From contig JAAYGY010000050.1 of assembly GCA_012735575.1 (NCBI GenBank), positions 9,020 to 73,019 of the forward strand: a stretch of 64,000 nucleotides of DNA, given 5' to 3'. The number at the start of each line of letters is the position of its first letter. Within the stretch, counting starts at the first letter, position 1. This document shows, in pieces, positions 4,955 through 17,736 of the stretch. The stretch comes from Clostridiales bacterium (lineage in GTDB: Bacteria; Bacillota; Clostridia; Caldicoprobacterales; UBA3941). The notes under the pieces were generated by a model that was given only the letters and a program-made list of their open reading frames with translations, searched no databases and had not been told where the DNA came from. The position numbers and the translations under genes were made by a program.

Positions 4955-6424
4955 GTGGCAAGAATTTCTGTCAAAGGAGATCGCTTTGTTGATAATCAGG
5001 GCAGGCATGTTATACTTAGGGGCATTAATTTAGTACATAAGGGAAACTGGGAAAATGGTATAATAAACTACATACCCTCCTGGGACGAAAGAGTATTTAG
5101 CAATTTAAAAAAATGGGGATTTAACCTGGTTCGTCTAGGGATTATATGGGATGCTGTTGAACCTAGACCTGGTGAATATGATGAAAAATATTTGGACTGG
5201 GTAAATAGGATGCTGGATCTATGTGAAAAATATGGAATATATGCTTATTTGGATATGCATCAGGATTTATACAGTGTCCTTTATAGCGATGGGGCCCCTG
5301 AATGGGCTACAATTACAGATAGTCAACCCCATATAGAAGGGGATATTTGGAGCGACGCCTATATAATTAGTGATGCTGTTAAAAGATCCTTTGATAATTT
5401 TTGGAATAATACTCCAGCATCAGACGGAGTAGGTTTGCAGGATCATTATGTTAATATGTGGGTACATATTGCTAAACGGTTTGCAGGGCATCCTGCATTA
5501 ATAGGGTATGATTTTTTAAATGAACCATTTCCTGGGACCCAGGCCACTGCTATTTTTGAGGCCTTGGTATCATCTTTAAAGGAAGCACTCAGTCAGGCCA
5601 AGGGAACTCATTATGCCTTCGAAGAAGTAATGGAAATGCTATCCCATCCAGAGGGAAAAATAAAGATACTAGATTTTATAGAGGATAAAAAGATATACCA
5701 ATCAGTTGCAAAAGCAGTGGAGCCCTTAGTTGAAAAGTTTGATAAAGGTGCTTTGGACGGATTTTACCGGAAAATCTCACAAGCAGTGCGTACAGTTGAT
5801 AGAGATACCATAATAATGAGAGAAAACAGCTATTTTTCTAATATAGGGATTGAATGTAAGGCCCAGCCTATTGTTTATGAAAATGGTACAAGAGAACCCC
5901 AACAGGCCTTTTCCCCTCACGGTTATGATCTGGTAGTAGATACAGAAGGGGTTCAATGGGCTAGCAACAACCGGATAGATGTTATTTTTGACGCACATCG
6001 TCGTACACAGCAGCGCATGGGTGTACCTGTTATGGTGGGTGAATGGGGTGCTCATGGAGATTATTCAGAAGGCTTATATCATATTGAACATATACTTCAA
6101 ATTTTTGATAAATATATGTGGAGCAGTACTTACTGGTGCTTTTATGATGGATTTGAAAATACTCCCGTTCTAGGTGTCTTAAAAAGACCTTTTCCACAGG
6201 CTGTTTGTGGCCGAATATTACATTTTAGATACGATTATCAATCAAAGAGGTTCTATATGGAATGGGATGAGGAAAATGGGCATGCTCCAACCATTATCTA
6301 CTTACCACAAAAGGAGTTTGAGGTGGAGAATATAAAAGATTTTTCAGTGGAACGAATGGGCCAAAGCTCACTAGTGGTAATTGAACCTACTGGCAGAAAG
6401 CGAAGTATATCTATAAGCCTTTAG
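4955..6424 (+). CDS. Glycoside hydrolase family 5 protein (cellulase/endoglycoceramidase-like), apparently cytoplasmic
   Basis: GH5 hallmarks GFNLVRLGIIWDAVEP and acid/base motif FLNEPFPG, with a later GEWG nucleophile-region motif. No signal peptide. GTG start with RBS AAAGGGGA. Confidence 0.8.
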   Translation: MARISVKGDRFVDNQGRHVILRGINLVHKGNWENGIINYIPSWDERVFSNLKKWGFNLVRLGIIWDAVEPRPGEYDEKYLDWVNRMLDLCEKYGIYAYLDMHQDLYSVLYSDGAPEWATITDSQPHIEGDIWSDAYIISDAVKRSFDNFWNNTPASDGVGLQDHYVNMWVHIAKRFAGHPALIGYDFLNEPFPGTQATAIFEALVSSLKEALSQAKGTHYAFEEVMEMLSHPEGKIKILDFIEDKKIYQSVAKAVEPLVEKFDKGALDGFYRKISQAVRTVDRDTIIMRENSYFSNIGIECKAQPIVYENGTREPQQAFSPHGYDLVVDTEGVQWASNNRIDVIFDAHRRTQQRMGVPVMVGEWGAHGDYSEGLYHIEHILQIFDKYMWSSTYWCFYDGFENTPVLGVLKRPFPQAVCGRILHFRYDYQSKRFYMEWDEENGHAPTIIYLPQKEFEVENIKDFSVERMGQSSLVVIEPTGRKRSISISL

Positions 6425-7698: not shown

Positions 7699-8949
7699 TT
7701 ACAGGCTGTATACTTTTCCTATGAAAAGAATTGAATCAGTTTTAAGGTCTGCAATTATAAAGACAAAGGGACGGTCTGCAGAAAAGATTGTGGGTTCTAA
7801 AGCGCTTGTTACCATCTCTACCACTGTTGCTGCGGCTGCCTCACTACCTTTTTCATTTACTTCTATTACAGCCTTGTGGAGTACGTCATATATAGACAGG
7901 TCATTTCTTATACCAGAAAAATCTGCCATGTCTGAGAATGCTTCCTCCATACCCAGGTCGATTAAGCAGTTCTTTAGGCTTTTTATGCCGTATTCAAGTT
8001 TGAAACGGGGTATTTTCAATATTACATCGTTTGTTTGTTCTATACTACTCTTGATATCATCCCATTTCTCCTTATCTAGATTTTCAACAAACTCATTTAT
8101 AGGAGTTTCTGATTCCGGCAAGATGCAGTACATGGCTAAATCACCCTTGCCATAGGGTAGTCTAACAACTTGAAAATCATTGCCCTGCCCATATTCCACT
8201 TCTCCATTTAAGGTCATCATCATTACATCCTGAGTGCTGCCATCACCGCCATGAAATGGGGCATTATAGGTATTCTTTTCATCGAATTTCTTGGTCCATT
8301 CTCCTTTAAAATATATGGCGTTTATAAGATACATAAGAGTTTCTGGTGCTATGGGCGGTTCTATCATTTCCTTTATTTTTTGTTTGGTAGCTTGGGATAT
8401 CCAGTCATTGATTGTATGGGCAGCACTGTCCTTAGAAAAATCCAGCTCCTCTATAAAAGCATAATAGTATTCTTTATTTACTGAAAGGAAATTTTCTAAA
8501 ATAGGTTCGCCATCTCTTATCCAGATTGAATTGGCCATATTTAGTTCAACCTTCTTGTCTAGCCTGTTTAAATACTGCAGTATATTTTTATAATTTTCAT
8601 TCAGAGTTTCCAAATCCATATTAGTGTATTCCAGAGTTTTTGCCATAACTTCCTTGGTAGTACTTTGAGCACCCTGGTAAGTCATGGCAAGGGCAGTGGA
8701 TATACTTATAGGGGATATAATTATGTTTTTATCTTTATCCTCACTATTTATCTGTCTAAAGATTTTAAAGGCAAATTCAGTATTCCTTGAAACAAAATCT
8801 GAATCTACTTTATTTGTTGTAATATTATTTGCAGACTTGGTATTGGGTATATTATCTGATATATTATCTGATGACAGATCAAGAGAACATCCTATAACCA
8901 AGCCGAGGGATATGGTTATACACAATAGAAGACATAGACACACTTTCAT
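7699..8949 (-). CDS. Serpin family protein, predicted lipoprotein, inhibitory-type reactive-centre loop
   Basis: Serpin length and C-terminal signature NEKGSEAAAATVVEMVTSALEPTIFSADRPFVFII (hinge E-K-G-S-E-A-A-A-A). Signal peptide with lipobox LVIG-C. The ATG at 8949 is preceded by GGAGG (ggaggatttaatATG). The track start at 9000 has no RBS. Confidence 0.85.
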   Translation of the reverse strand: MKVCLCLLLCITISLGLVIGCSLDLSSDNISDNIPNTKSANNITTNKVDSDFVSRNTEFAFKIFRQINSEDKDKNIIISPISISTALAMTYQGAQSTTKEVMAKTLEYTNMDLETLNENYKNILQYLNRLDKKVELNMANSIWIRDGEPILENFLSVNKEYYYAFIEELDFSKDSAAHTINDWISQATKQKIKEMIEPPIAPETLMYLINAIYFKGEWTKKFDEKNTYNAPFHGGDGSTQDVMMMTLNGEVEYGQGNDFQVVRLPYGKGDLAMYCILPESETPINEFVENLDKEKWDDIKSSIEQTNDVILKIPRFKLEYGIKSLKNCLIDLGMEEAFSDMADFSGIRNDLSIYDVLHKAVIEVNEKGSEAAAATVVEMVTSALEPTIFSADRPFVFIIADLKTDSILFIGKVYSL

Positions 8950-9066
8950 ATTAAATCCTCCTGGAATGAATTCTACATCTATGCAGACGTATCTATGCAT
9001 GGTTTTGTTTCAGTCACATATGTTTGACTTCTCTAGAAGTTTTGTTTTAGCTTACAAAAATTTCTA

Positions 9067-9094
9067 TTGACCTTAGTGATAAAAATGATATAAT
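9067..9094 (+). promoter_or_regulatory. Strong sigma-A-type promoter (TTGACC-16 nt-TGaTATAAT)
   Basis: ttgacc at 9067-9072, tataat at 9089-9094, and TG one base upstream of the -10 hexamer. Confidence 0.65.
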
Positions 9095-9100
9095 AATTAT

Positions 9101-9362
9101 AGAAAAGAGATCAAGATTTTCTGAGATATCCGTGTCGCTTTTATTTTGAACCTACATTGTAAATAAGGGAGTCCAAATCTAAAGGACTGATATCAGGCCT
9201 TTGTAAGTCCAATATGGCAGGGGAAGATAGATGCCTTTATGAGGACACCCACCTATCCGAGAGATAGGTGTCAAAATAGGGGCAACGGTATCTTGGATAA
9301 TGTATTAGAAATTTGATTATAAGACCATAAGTGCGTACAGACAACACTTATGGTCTTTTTTG
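9101..9362 (+). ncRNA. Unassigned structured RNA (about 260 nt) bounded by a promoter and an intrinsic terminator
   Basis: No ORF. Long-range closing helix: atcaagattttct (about 9110-9122) with agaaatttgat (about 9308-9320), and agata..ccgt (9123-9134) with acggtatct (9284-9292). Internal hairpins: cacctat-ccgagag-ataggtg and ggca..tgcc. Terminator: aagaccataagtg...cacttatggtctt followed by T6 (9321-9362). Confidence 0.5.
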
Positions 9363-9622
9363 TCTTTTGCTTTGAAAATTCACATTAATTTAACCCCTTG
9401 TGTTAGTTCGACAGTTATTGGTATATAATGGCTATTGATCCTTCATTTATCAATTACCATTATGTACATGGCAAACTAAAGGTTGAACTGGCACAATCAT
9501 TTAATTTAATATAGATAAGTGAATTTTATGTTATGATATCCAATTATGTGGTATTAATTAGAGGCAATGAGACAAATTATTAGTATAAATAAATATTTAA
9601 ATAGTATAAAGGAGGAATGATT

Positions 9623-10207
9623 TTGGCAAAACCAAAAAAGCCTAGATTTAAGGTAGCTAGGCATCTGGGGGAAAATGTATATAATCACCCTAAAGCCCTT
9701 AAAAGAGGGGTAAAGGTTCATAGAAAACAGTCGGAATATGGCAAGCAGTTATTGGAAAAACAAAAGCTAAAGGCATATTACGGACTCAAAGAGCGCCAGT
9801 TTAGGCGTTATGTAAAAGAAGCCTTAAAAACAAAGGAGAATCCAGGTGTTGTACTGATCCAGAATTTAGAATTAAGGCTAGATAATATAGTATACAGGCT
9901 GGGTTATGGTTCTACCTTACGTCAAGCCAGACAAATTGTAAACCATGGACATATTCGCGTAAATGGAAATAAAGTGGATATACCTTCTTACCTTCTAAAG
10001 GTTGGAGATGAAATCAGCTTAAGTGAGAGGGCAAGTAATAAAGATTTGTTCCGTGAAAATTTCCAGTCTGCGCCCCTGAATCTGAGCTATCTGACTAAAG
10101 ATGTGGAAACTTTAAAAGGCCAACTGGTAGGTGTACCTGATATAGATGAAATACCAATAAACGTTGAAATACAGCCCATAATAGAATTTTACTCCAGAAG
10201 GCTGTAG
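9623..10207 (+). CDS. rpsD: 30S ribosomal protein S4, divergent stand-alone copy
   Basis: S4 domain LDNIVYRLGYGSTLRQARQIVNHGHIRVNGNKVDIPSYLLKVGDEISL. The N-terminus MAKPKKPRFKVARHLG is atypical. The TTG at 9623 lies 7 nt after AAGGAGG, while the track ATG at 9617 is only 1 nt from the RBS. Confidence 0.85.
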   Translation: MAKPKKPRFKVARHLGENVYNHPKALKRGVKVHRKQSEYGKQLLEKQKLKAYYGLKERQFRRYVKEALKTKENPGVVLIQNLELRLDNIVYRLGYGSTLRQARQIVNHGHIRVNGNKVDIPSYLLKVGDEISLSERASNKDLFRENFQSAPLNLSYLTKDVETLKGQLVGVPDIDEIPINVEIQPIIEFYSRRL

Positions 10208-10289: not shown

Positions 10290-10500
10290 GATTTATCCCT
10301 TTAAGTCTTATATTATAAATTTGAAGCAAATAAATAACCAGTCAATTTTAAGACTATACTATGGACAAGATAATGATTGGAGGGATAGATTAAATTAATC
10401 CGTTTAAATTATTGTTTCAATAGATTTGATTGAGGGTAAGATGTAAAAGATTTAAAAAGATTATTTGGAAGTTAATATTAGAAACAGGAGGAAGATAGTT

Positions 10501-10692
10501 ATGAAAATTAAAAAGGAAATGACCATAGGAGAATTACTTAGAACCTATCCTCAAGTGATAGAAGCTCTTTTAGAGTTTAATATGGGATGTATTGGATGCC
10601 CCTCTGCACAGAGTGAAACTTTAGAAGAGGCAGCTATGGTTCATGGTATCAACGTAGATAAGCTTCTTGAAAGATTAAATGAGGCGGTATAA
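10501..10692 (+). CDS. DUF1858 / hybrid-cluster-protein-associated redox disulfide protein
   Basis: Small protein with a CIGCP motif (FNMGCIGCPSAQSETLEEAA). ATG at 10501 after AGGAGG. Lies next to hemerythrin and hcp. Confidence 0.75.
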   Translation: MKIKKEMTIGELLRTYPQVIEALLEFNMGCIGCPSAQSETLEEAAMVHGINVDKLLERLNEAV

Positions 10693-10697
10693 GTAAC

Positions 10698-11258
10698 ATG
10701 GACAGCATAAGCCTTATGGTTGAAGAGCATAAAAATATTAAGCGAATGCTCAAAGTTATCCGCAGGTATTGCTTTAGAATACTAAAAGGTCAGGAAGTTG
10801 ATTATAAAGATTTTTATAAAATAATTGACTTTATAAGGAATTACGCTGATAGCCATCACCATGGTAAAGAAGAAAAGATGCTCTTTAATAGAATGGCAGG
10901 TGAACTGGGGCCAGCAGCAGAAAAACTTGTAACCCACGGAATGTTGGTAGAACATGATCTAGGAAGGCTATACACAAAACAGTTGGAAGGAGCCATATCA
11001 AAGGTTTTAGATGGCGATGAAGAAGCCAAACTGGATGTAATTGGCAATGCCATAGGCTATGGGGATTTGTTAAATAGACATATCGATAAAGAGGATAGGA
11101 TAGTTTATGAATTCGCTAGAAAAAACCTAGCAGAGGATACTCTGAAAAAGATAAACTATGAGACCCAAGTATTTGAAAACAGGGCAAAGGAAAAGAATAT
11201 ACAGCAAAATTATCTGGATCTACTGAATGAATTAGAATCAAAGGTTTCAGAATCATAA
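10698..11258 (+). CDS. Hemerythrin (HHE cation-binding) domain protein
   Basis: H/E-rich metal-ligand pattern (EEHKNIKRML, HHHGKEE, VEHD, RHIDKED). Starts 6 nt after the DUF1858 gene. Confidence 0.75.
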   Translation: MDSISLMVEEHKNIKRMLKVIRRYCFRILKGQEVDYKDFYKIIDFIRNYADSHHHGKEEKMLFNRMAGELGPAAEKLVTHGMLVEHDLGRLYTKQLEGAISKVLDGDEEAKLDVIGNAIGYGDLLNRHIDKEDRIVYEFARKNLAEDTLKKINYETQVFENRAKEKNIQQNYLDLLNELESKVSES

Positions 11259-11278
11259 AAGATTTTATAATAAAATAG

Positions 11279-11301
11279 GGACTGCTACAGCAGTCCTTTT
11301 T
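11279..11301 (+). terminator. Rho-independent terminator
   Basis: ggactgc-taca-gcagtcc stem-loop followed by T5. Confidence 0.75.
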
Positions 11302-11334
11302 AATTGCAAGCATATTACAAAAAACTTTCCTGTG

Positions 11335-11348
11335 GTAACTAATGTTAC
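11335..11348. promoter_or_regulatory. GTAAC-N4-GTTAC palindrome (CRP/FNR/HcpR-like site) at about -41.5 of the hcp promoter
   Basis: gtaactaatgttac is a perfect inverted repeat. TATAAT lies at 11371-11376, so the predicted TSS is about 11383 and the site centre (11341.5) sits at about -41.5. Confidence 0.55.
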
Positions 11349-11492
11349 ATACTTTAAAATATACATTATTTATAATACAAAATGTAATGTTGGTGTGTCA
11401 ATTGCCTAATAAACGGGTAAAAAAAAGCAAGAGCATGTCTAACTTTCTGTTATGAAAATTAAATTATTAAAAAACTGGGAGGTAGGAAAAAA

Positions 11493-13124
11493 ATGAATAT
11501 GTTTTGTTATCAGTGTCAGGAAACCGCAAAGGGCACAGGTTGTACCCTAAGGGGTGTCTGCGGGAAGACTGCCCAAGTTTCAAATTTACAAGATCTACTA
11601 ATTTATACTGTAAAAGGCATTTCTGAGGTAGTGGTTAAAGGTGGATTAGATGTTAAAGAACTAGGTGATGTAAATCATGAGGTACTCAACAGCCTTTTTA
11701 TCACTATTACCAATGCTAACTTTGATGATGACGCTATTGAAGGACAGATCAAAAAGATGCTGGCTGAAAGGGATAAGCTGAGAGCAAAGGTAACCGCTGA
11801 AAATCTGCACGATTGCGCTACCTTTGAAGTCGGCGACAGACAATCCATGTTGGAAAAGGCTGTTAATGTAGGTATCTTATCCACAGAAAATGAAGACATT
11901 AGGTCTTTGAGAGAGATGATAACCTACGGTATCAAAGGTTTAGCTGCTTATGCTCATCATGCACTAAACATTGGCAAGGAAAACCCTGATCTTTATGCTT
12001 TTATCTATGAGGCTATGGCAGCTACAGTGGATGACAGCTTAACCGTTGATGATTTGGTTGCTCTAACTTTAAAGACTGGTGAACATGGAGTTGCGGCCAT
12101 GGCACTATTAGATGAGGCCAATACCTCAAAGTACGGTAACCCTGAGATCACTGAGGTAAATATCGGTGTACGCAATAATCCCGCTATTTTAGTCTCCGGC
12201 CACGATCTGACGGATTTGGAGCAGCTATTAGAGCAGACTAAGGGCACTGGTGTTGATGTCTACACCCATGGAGAGATGCTGCCAGCTCACTACTATCCAG
12301 CTTTCAAAAAGTATGATCATTTTGTAGGCAACTATGGAAACGCCTGGTGGAAACAAATAGAAGAGTTCGAATCCTTTAATGGACCTATTCTGTTCACCAC
12401 AAATTGCTTGGTTCCTCCAAGAAGTGAAGAGGTAAGATCAAGAATCTTTACCACTGGAGCAACAGGATACCCAGGATGTGTTCATATAGAAGCTGATGAG
12501 AACGGTAAAAAAGATTTCTCACAAATCATTGAAATGGCCAAGAAATTAAATCCTCCTAAAGAAATTGAAAATGGTACCATAGTGGGTGGCTTTGCACACA
12601 ACCAGGTATTTGCACTGGCTGATAAAATAGTTGATGCAGTTAAGAGTGGTGCCATCAGGAAGTTCTTCGTAATGGCCGGCTGCGATGGCAGGATGAAATC
12701 CAGGGAATACTATACCCAGTTTGCCGAAAGATTACCCAGGGATACTGTAATCCTGACTGCCGGATGTGCCAAATACAGATATAATAAGTTAGATGTTGGA
12801 GATATTGGAGGAATTCCAAGGGTACTTGATGCAGGACAGTGTAATGATTCCTACTCCCTTGCACTAATAGCACTGAAACTAAAGGAAATCTTTGAGCTAG
12901 AGGATGTTAACCAACTGCCCATAGCTTACAATATTGCCTGGTATGAGCAAAAAGCTGTTATTGTACTACTGGCTCTACTTTACCTGGGAGTTAAAAACAT
13001 CCATCTAGGACCAACTCTACCTGGCTTCTTATCTCCAAACGTAGCTAAAGTATTGGTAGAGCAATTTGGAATTGGTGGTATCACCGAAGTTGATGAAGAT
13101 ATAAAAATGTTCATGAGTGCATAA
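11493..13124 (+). CDS. hcp: Hydroxylamine reductase / hybrid cluster protein
   Basis: Canonical N-terminus [23 protein letters not shown] and full-length Hcp architecture. The true start may be the ATG at 11499. Confidence 0.95.
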
Positions 13125-17329: not shown

Positions 17330-17415
17330 AACTGTGATAAGGGCAAACTATCCGAAAGGGTAGGACGCAAAGTCAGGAGTCTAAGACATTTATGTTATGA
17401 CCGTCCGACTGCCAC
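17330..17415 (+). promoter_or_regulatory. c-di-GMP-I (GEMM-I) riboswitch aptamer
   Basis: GGGCAAAC-tatcc-GAAA-gggta-GGACGCAAAGTC-aggagTCTAAG...ATGACcgtCCGACTGCC matches the class-I layout: a GGCAAAC core, a GNRA-capped P1b, GACGCAAAG, and a P2 with a tetraloop-receptor-type arm. Confidence 0.85.
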
Positions 17416-17443
17416 AACATTTATTAATGGCAGTCGTTTTTTT
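17407..17443 (+). terminator. Riboswitch expression-platform terminator
   Basis: gactgcca (17407-17414) pairs with tggcagtc (17428-17435), followed by T7. The 5' arm is the 3' end of the aptamer. Confidence 0.8.
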
Positions 17444-17736
17444 GGCATAAAAACCCTGTTAAATGGAATAATAATGTAAAGATGGACAAATAAAAGATAT
17501 TCTATTCTAATCTATTGAAACTTATCAAAGGGTAATATATATAAGAATATCCGATAAGTATAAGAAGAAAGGTGATTATATGAATTAAAAAAAATCACTT
17601 ACAAGGAACTTATTATAGAACTAGATCTTTTGAACTAGAAAAATCAAGAGAACATTTTAAATGAGCATAAGTAAAATATTAATGGCCAAGGCTAGTAAAA
17701 GATAAGCGACTAATAGGAAGAAAGGCTGGGCTAAAA

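Follow-up and report, generated by a model that had tools for sequence, protein, structure and literature searches.

The window, by which we mean the whole 64-kb stretch of DNA analysed, carries a structured RNA gene on its plus strand between two protein-coding genes. On one side, a serpin of 433 aa (PF00079, E 1e-119) is encoded on the minus strand at 7699-9000, divergent from the RNA gene, and a GH5 cellulase lies near the serpin at 4955-6424. A serpin with 66 % identity occupies the same position in L004, which together with L001 forms the pair of syntenic loci used throughout for comparison. On the other side, a gene for an S4 protein follows on the same strand (9617-10207). The conserved start codon is probably the TTG at 9623 rather than the ATG at 9617, as the latter is missing from L001 while the Shine-Dalgarno sequence and TTGGCAAAACC are conserved. 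Of about 185,000 species-representative genomes, no more than two have a copy of this S4 protein with over 55 % identity, and the rarity of the lineage suggests a divergent stand-alone S4 paralogue. Downstream of S4, genes for a DUF1858 protein, a hemerythrin-domain protein and a hybrid-cluster protein (prismane) stand in a row on the plus strand (10465-13124) and look like a nitrosative or oxidative stress cluster. Further along, a c-di-GMP-I riboswitch (RF01051, 80.3 bits) was identified at 17332-17416 on the plus strand. A terminator-like hairpin, GACTGCCA...TGGCAGTC with a T-run, lies behind it at about 17408-17445, and some 290 nt past this hairpin there come a 94-aa ORF for which no Pfam match was obtained, a HisKA_3 histidine kinase (17996-19780) and a LuxR-type response regulator (19777-20391).

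The RNA gene itself comprises the following features, all on the plus strand:

9067..9094, plus strand: sigma-A-type promoter, with the -35 element TTGACC at 9067-9072, a 16-nt spacer and the extended -10 element TGaTATAAT at 9086-9094
9101..9114, plus strand: predicted 5' leader, deduced from the promoter position and the start of the 6S model at 9115
9115..9303, plus strand: 6S RNA (SsrS) core, as matched by RF00013 and syntenic in L004 and L001
9120-9133 with 9285-9297, plus strand: closing stem of 13 pairs, 9 of them compensatory, with 89.8 % of cells paired across 71 sequences
9137-9152 with 9267-9283, plus strand: helix beside the central bubble (P2, 'downstream duplex'), from fold and alignment
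9150..9166, plus strand: 5' strand of the central bubble, predicted single-stranded, being unpaired in the minimum-free-energy and consensus folds
9167-9174 (GGGAGUCC) with 9243-9250 (GGACACCC), plus strand: internal stem, 90.1 % paired, with 3 compensatory pairs
9178..9242, plus strand: apical arm, with stems 9181-9186/9234-9239, 9191-9193/9227-9229 and 9198-9201/9220-9223 and an apical loop
9251..9270, plus strand: 3' strand of the central bubble, with an invariant CACCCACCU block and a hairpin, 9252-9257/9263-9268
9304..9320, plus strand: 3' trailer from the core to the terminator, poorly conserved and partly deleted in L001
9321..9361, plus strand: intrinsic terminator, with stem 9321-9333/9345-9357, an 11-nt loop and the T-run 9356-9361 (T6)

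The promoter, already described in the earlier note, scores 11/12 and has the TG extension in addition; no site in a scan of 8700-9900 is better. In a three-way alignment of the window with L004 and L001, the -35 and -10 hexamers and the TG are invariant, and from the promoter spacing transcription is expected to start at about A9101 or G9102. The terminator was likewise described correctly as a 13-bp stem followed by T6; the two outer A-U pairs of the stem use the first two Ts of the T-run, and its free energy is -17.5 kcal/mol. In L001 the stem is retained despite changes in both strands (AGCCATAAACGC / GCGCTTGTGGCT). The consensus terminator scanner is restricted to loops of 3-8 nt and reported no terminator at this position, where the loop has 11 nt; its result reflects the loop limit and not absence of a terminator. 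Among the homologues introduced below, a promoter-like site was seen in 41 of 69 and a terminator-like site in 44 of 69, which are purely descriptive counts. No ORF of at least 30 aa is present on the plus strand between 9071 and 9616, in agreement with the earlier reading, and the only antisense ORFs overlapping the RNA are two of 31 and 36 aa. The picture of a structured small RNA that is non-coding, stands alone and is bounded by a promoter and a terminator of its own is upheld.

Initiated at its own strong sigma-A promoter at about 9101 and ended at its own terminator at about 9361, the primary transcript would be about 260 nt long. In B. subtilis, 6S RNA precursors lose their 5' leader and are trimmed at the 3' end (PMC10578484), and the leader of 6S-1, comparable to the one predicted here, is removed by RNase J1 (PMC10578484). 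Because such processing is documented there, the mature RNA is likely to measure about 190 nt here as well: leader and trailer would probably be trimmed from the precursor of about 260 nt, leaving the core at 9115-9303. For the 5' leader, trimming or retention as a precursor form are both probable fates, and the 3' trimming is proposed by analogy with B. subtilis (PMC10578484).

The identity of the core was established by covariance models. Comparison of the whole window with Rfam 15 at gathering thresholds returned two hits, among them the 6S/SsrS family RF00013 at 9115-9303 on the plus strand with 75.7 bits (gathering score 46.4, E 3.9e-13). The match is full-length, covering model positions 1-187 of 187, and the 189 nt of the core fall within the approximately 180-200 nt of a 6S-type non-coding transcript. 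A second scan restricted to 8900-9700, with more permissive filters and E <= 1, found RF00013 again, and its sole other match was tsr26 at chance level (E 0.71), whose 22.5 bits compare with a cut-off of 141. The locus had been called an orphan of unresolved identity, a label that does not survive this match; the Rfam scan proposed at the same time, with 6S among the models listed, thus settled the question by a confident hit. We conclude that the locus is almost certainly the 6S RNA gene (SsrS, ssrS) of a low-GC bacterium within the Clostridia that is uncultured, and none of the observations speaks against this identity.

Homologues were collected by two routes. With the neighbouring S4 protein as query, 79 loci were obtained in species-representative genomes, and only 2 of them carry a 6S gene, hence the S4 synteny is shallow. 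The only close S4 loci are these two, L004 (89 % identity) and L001 (74 %), both from Clostridiales metagenome-assembled genomes, and in both a full-length 6S match lies directly upstream of S4 (74.5 and 70.4 bits). A metagenome search with a pattern of two conserved 6S blocks, TTTTGAACCNAC and CACCCACCT separated by a gap of 78-108 nt, gave 119 loci, from which four chance hits and two copies too near a contig end were dropped. The usable homologues number 113 with the window, L004 and L001 included, and clustering at 90 % identity left 71 sequences, which share 52-83 % identity with the window. Invariance of TTTTGAACCNAC and CACCCACCT in the metagenome set is a product of ascertainment through the search pattern and not evidence; for these blocks the independent sequences are L004 and L001, which were found via the S4 protein. 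When 16 loci were re-scanned with Rfam, all 16 exceeded the 6S threshold with 50.2-105.2 bits. Three of the homologous loci have notable surroundings. At L140 (4486-4765) a tRNA ends 10 nt ahead of the 6S gene and co-transcription is possible; at L095 (447-1678) the 6S gene is immediately followed, on the other strand, by pieces of a group II intron; and at L081 (10354-11576) an Acido-Lenti-1 RNA is located about 1 kb from the 6S gene.

The earlier note had leaned towards a riboswitch for c-di-AMP (ydaO/kimA-type) or a riboswitch-like element of some unnamed class, and a ligand-sensing leader of this or another kind controlling the downstream S4 gene has to be weighed against 6S RNA. Its appeal lay in loose likenesses of short words (CGCTT...GAACC, AAGGGAGTCCAA, GGGGAAGATAG and CACCC...CCGAGAG) and in the presence of the S4 gene downstream on the same strand. 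The words, however, are conserved 6S blocks, and the RNA resembles the ydaO-yuaA riboswitch (RF00379) in similar length and in a few short G/C-rich words but differs in architecture, in its own terminator and in having neither a conserved downstream gene nor a model match. RF00379 gave no match at the gathering threshold in the whole window, and in the permissive scan of 8900-9700 no match at E <= 1 was obtained with RF00379, raiA, the Rfam S4 and alpha-operon leader models or any other riboswitch or leader model. Moreover, the 13-bp terminator (-17.5 kcal/mol) would end the transcript about 260 nt ahead of S4, and S4 has a conserved promoter-like block of its own (TGTGGTATTAAT) downstream of the 6S terminator. 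Among the 91 loci with at least 900 nt of downstream sequence (of the 119 metagenome and two syntenic loci), S4 follows the RNA only in L004 and L001, the two closest genomes. This bears out the doubt already voiced about S4 as an atypical target, and the adjacency of 6S and S4 is local gene order only. A c-di-AMP riboswitch is effectively refuted by the covariance-model scan, the RNA's own terminator and the lack of a conserved downstream gene, and an S4 leader was rejected on the grounds that no leader model matched 8900-9700 at E <= 1 and that the terminator stands between the RNA and S4; to ligand sensing as a whole we assign next to no probability. As a separate observation, the roughly 135 nt (about 9383-9495) between the 6S terminator and the S4 promoter block are absent from L004 and L001, and a TATAAT occurs within this stretch at 9424-9429.

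The fold of the RNA accords with 6S RNA in detail. The segment 9100-9362 folds at -81.4 kcal/mol (z = -5.03), and none of 200 dinucleotide shuffles folds as well. We aligned the 71 sequences with MAFFT without reference to structure (alignment A2); RNAalifold recovers the 6S layout from this alignment, with compensatory changes in 22 of 30 pairs. An explicit structure of 41 pairs was then compared with controls: 89.7 % of its cells are paired, against 36.6-52.8 % with partners slid by 1-3 columns; cells with double changes number 338 against 112 ± 12 in shuffles; and the covariation score is 0.378 against 0.190. Double changes occur in 25 of the 41 pairs, and none of 500 shuffles attained the observed values on any of five measures. 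The 6S fold is thus strongly supported, with the conservation and covariation in relatives that the earlier note had named as a check. The alignment shows a conserved rod: a closing stem, then the large central bubble, and beyond it the internal and apical stems. The long terminal helix described previously is confirmed, and the closing stem at 9120-9133/9285-9297 is its conserved part; the outer extensions, 9116-9118/9299-9301 and 9109-9115/9312-9318, occur only in the fold of the window sequence itself. The second of these, which is deleted in L001, was rejected as conserved structure.

Towards the centre of the rod, the bubble-adjacent helix has 13 bp in the window's own fold (9137-9149 with 9271-9283), and the alignment pairs 9144-9152 with 9267-9276 at 98.8 %. 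This helix is nearly invariant and its 5' strand belongs to the search pattern, so covariation neither supports nor refutes it. The internal stem reads GUCC/GGAC, GUUC/GAAC and GCCC/GGGC in the three syntenic genomes, and the apical stems have compensatory changes in all 13 of their pairs and are 78-90 % paired. The two strands of the bubble are not paired together in the predicted folds, where 9251-9270 pairs only within itself. The hairpin in the 3' strand is already present in the fold of the free RNA and is 95.5 % paired across the alignment, with covariation; at columns 188:197, 49 sequences have GC and 13 have UA.

Another suggestion was that the RNA switches between three states through mutually exclusive pairings of AGTCC, GGACT and AGTCC, and the same words could serve a base-pairing small RNA that has nothing to do with RNA polymerase. 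All three words exist. The second (GGACT, 9184-9188) and the third (AGTCC, 9206-9210) lie where they had been placed, and the first is at 9170-9174, one base off the 9169-9173 given before. Over the 71 homologues, however, 9170-9174 and 9184-9188 are paired in 47.3 % of cells against 48.0 % in shuffled controls, and 9184-9188 and 9206-9210 in 42.2 % against 38.5 %. Neither alternative pairing does better than shuffled or slid controls and both were rejected. Furthermore, the conserved, covarying partner of the first AGTCC is GGAC at 9243-9246, a fourth complementary word that the earlier note had missed, and the third AGTCC lies within a lineage-specific motif of the apical loop. An RNA of this switching or base-pairing kind is accordingly given a vanishingly small chance, and 6S RNA accounts for the conserved pairing of the first word as part of the internal stem.

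6S RNA is known to mimic an open promoter, to bind the housekeeping holoenzyme, to serve as a template for a short product RNA (pRNA) copied from the 5' bubble strand, whose synthesis unwinds the helix beside the bubble, and to be released as a result (PMC8876501, PMC12005410, PMC9670815). By analogy with the family, we infer the same functional steps, namely polymerase binding, pRNA synthesis and release, for the RNA at 9115-9303. The rod with its open bubble would mimic an open promoter and would occupy the active-site cleft of the sigma-A RNA polymerase holoenzyme, so that housekeeping transcription would be damped when nutrients run out. Once nucleotide levels rise, the polymerase would copy the 5' bubble strand as template from about C9155. 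The short pRNA made, predicted as 5'-GUAGGUUCAAAAUA, would lead to unwinding of the helix 9137-9152/9267-9283, upon which the RNA would refold and the enzyme would be released. C9155 is predicted to be the template for the first pRNA nucleotide from the Rfam register and the similarity to the B. subtilis 6S-1 pRNA, and 9137-9152 is predicted to be the part of the pRNA template that must be unwound. The B. subtilis 6S-1 pRNA is GTP-initiated with the sequence 5'-GUUCGGUCAAAACU (PMC12005410). The predicted pRNA, 5'-GUAGGUUC... and complementary to 9142-9155, is identical to it at 9 of 14 positions, with UCAAAA (positions 7-12) in register.

Comparison with known 6S systems suggests a subtype. 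Firmicutes RNAs of the 6S-1 type have a hairpin in the 3' bubble strand (PMC8876501), and the predicted fold of the free RNA in the window has this hairpin together with an open 5' bubble strand. The pre-formed hairpin and the predicted G-initiated pRNA place the RNA with the B. subtilis 6S-1 type. With 6S-1 (bsrA) it has in common the Rfam family, the rod with a central bubble, the pre-formed 3'-bubble hairpin with the 5' bubble strand open, a pRNA (predicted here) that begins with G and carries UCAAAA, and a longer precursor with a 5' leader, here deduced. In contrast to 6S-1, the window sequence is divergent, the implied primary transcript is longer (about 260 nt, where the B. subtilis precursor has 208 nt), and the apical loop contains a lineage-specific UAAGUCC motif. 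In addition, the 'central bubble collapse helix' that arises in 6S-1 once the pRNA has been made was not predicted when the RNA was refolded with 8-16 nt of template held unpaired, for which a minimum-free-energy fold is a weak test. As this constrained refolding gave no such helix, the rearrangement upon release may differ in detail from that of B. subtilis 6S-1.

E. coli 6S (ssrS) belongs to the same family and resembles the RNA in open-promoter mimicry, sequestration of the housekeeping holoenzyme and pRNA-driven release. The Rfam alignment sets C9155 in register with the E. coli pRNA start, U44. E. coli ssrS is co-transcribed with ygfA and its pRNA starts with A. The 3' bubble strand of E. 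coli 6S is unstructured when free and forms an extended 9-bp hairpin only after pRNA synthesis (PMC8876501), whereas the hairpin is pre-formed in the RNA of the window. The pRNA of Aquifex 6S has its GUAGG start in common with the pRNA predicted here.

Two 6S genes exist in some Firmicutes (PMC10578484), which raises the question of whether the RNA is the main one, of the 6S-1 type, or a second paralogue that has diverged in function, comparable to B. subtilis 6S-2. The sequence at hand amounts to 64 kb of the genome and a further 6S copy is possible outside it; in addition, a putative terminator hairpin is mentioned for B. subtilis 6S-2 (PMC10578484) and the gene in the window has a terminator too. 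Against this, the structured 3'-bubble hairpin and the open 5' bubble are of the 6S-1 type and 6S-2 is less structured in the bubble (PMC8876501), the predicted pRNA starts with G and has 9 of 14 positions in common with that of 6S-1, and the Rfam scan found no second 6S match within the window. We therefore regard a divergent paralogue as unlikely and retain assignment to the main, 6S-1-type RNA.

The apical loop has an insertion, marked by the conserved motif U[AG]A[GAU][UA]CC, that is common to 17 of the 71 representatives and lies at 9202-9219 in the window (columns 116-146 of A2). Within it, a 3-bp mini-hairpin is possible at 9209-9211/9215-9217; its third pair occurs as A-U, C-G, G-C or U-A in 11 of the 17 sequences, as counted by a crude pattern match. 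Conceivably, the clade has added a functional apical-loop module made of motif and mini-hairpin and its working RNA may also retain the unusually long extensions at the 5' and 3' ends, although we consider this very unlikely. If it were true, either the apical module or the retained extensions would provide the RNA with a second partner, or with some control of its stability, in addition to the textbook cycle of polymerase sequestration.

6S RNA is among the most widespread bacterial RNA families, and since standard annotation would name it, the locus is an ordinary one of an already known kind. It should be labelled ssrS (6S RNA) and not as an unknown riboswitch-like element; beyond the correct annotation the finding has little significance and opens no new question. 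The by-products of the analysis are modest: a non-redundant set of 71 6S sequences of the Clostridia type, in which covariation is clear, a predicted pRNA start and a subgroup-specific apical-loop motif, all of which could serve comparative work on 6S RNA.
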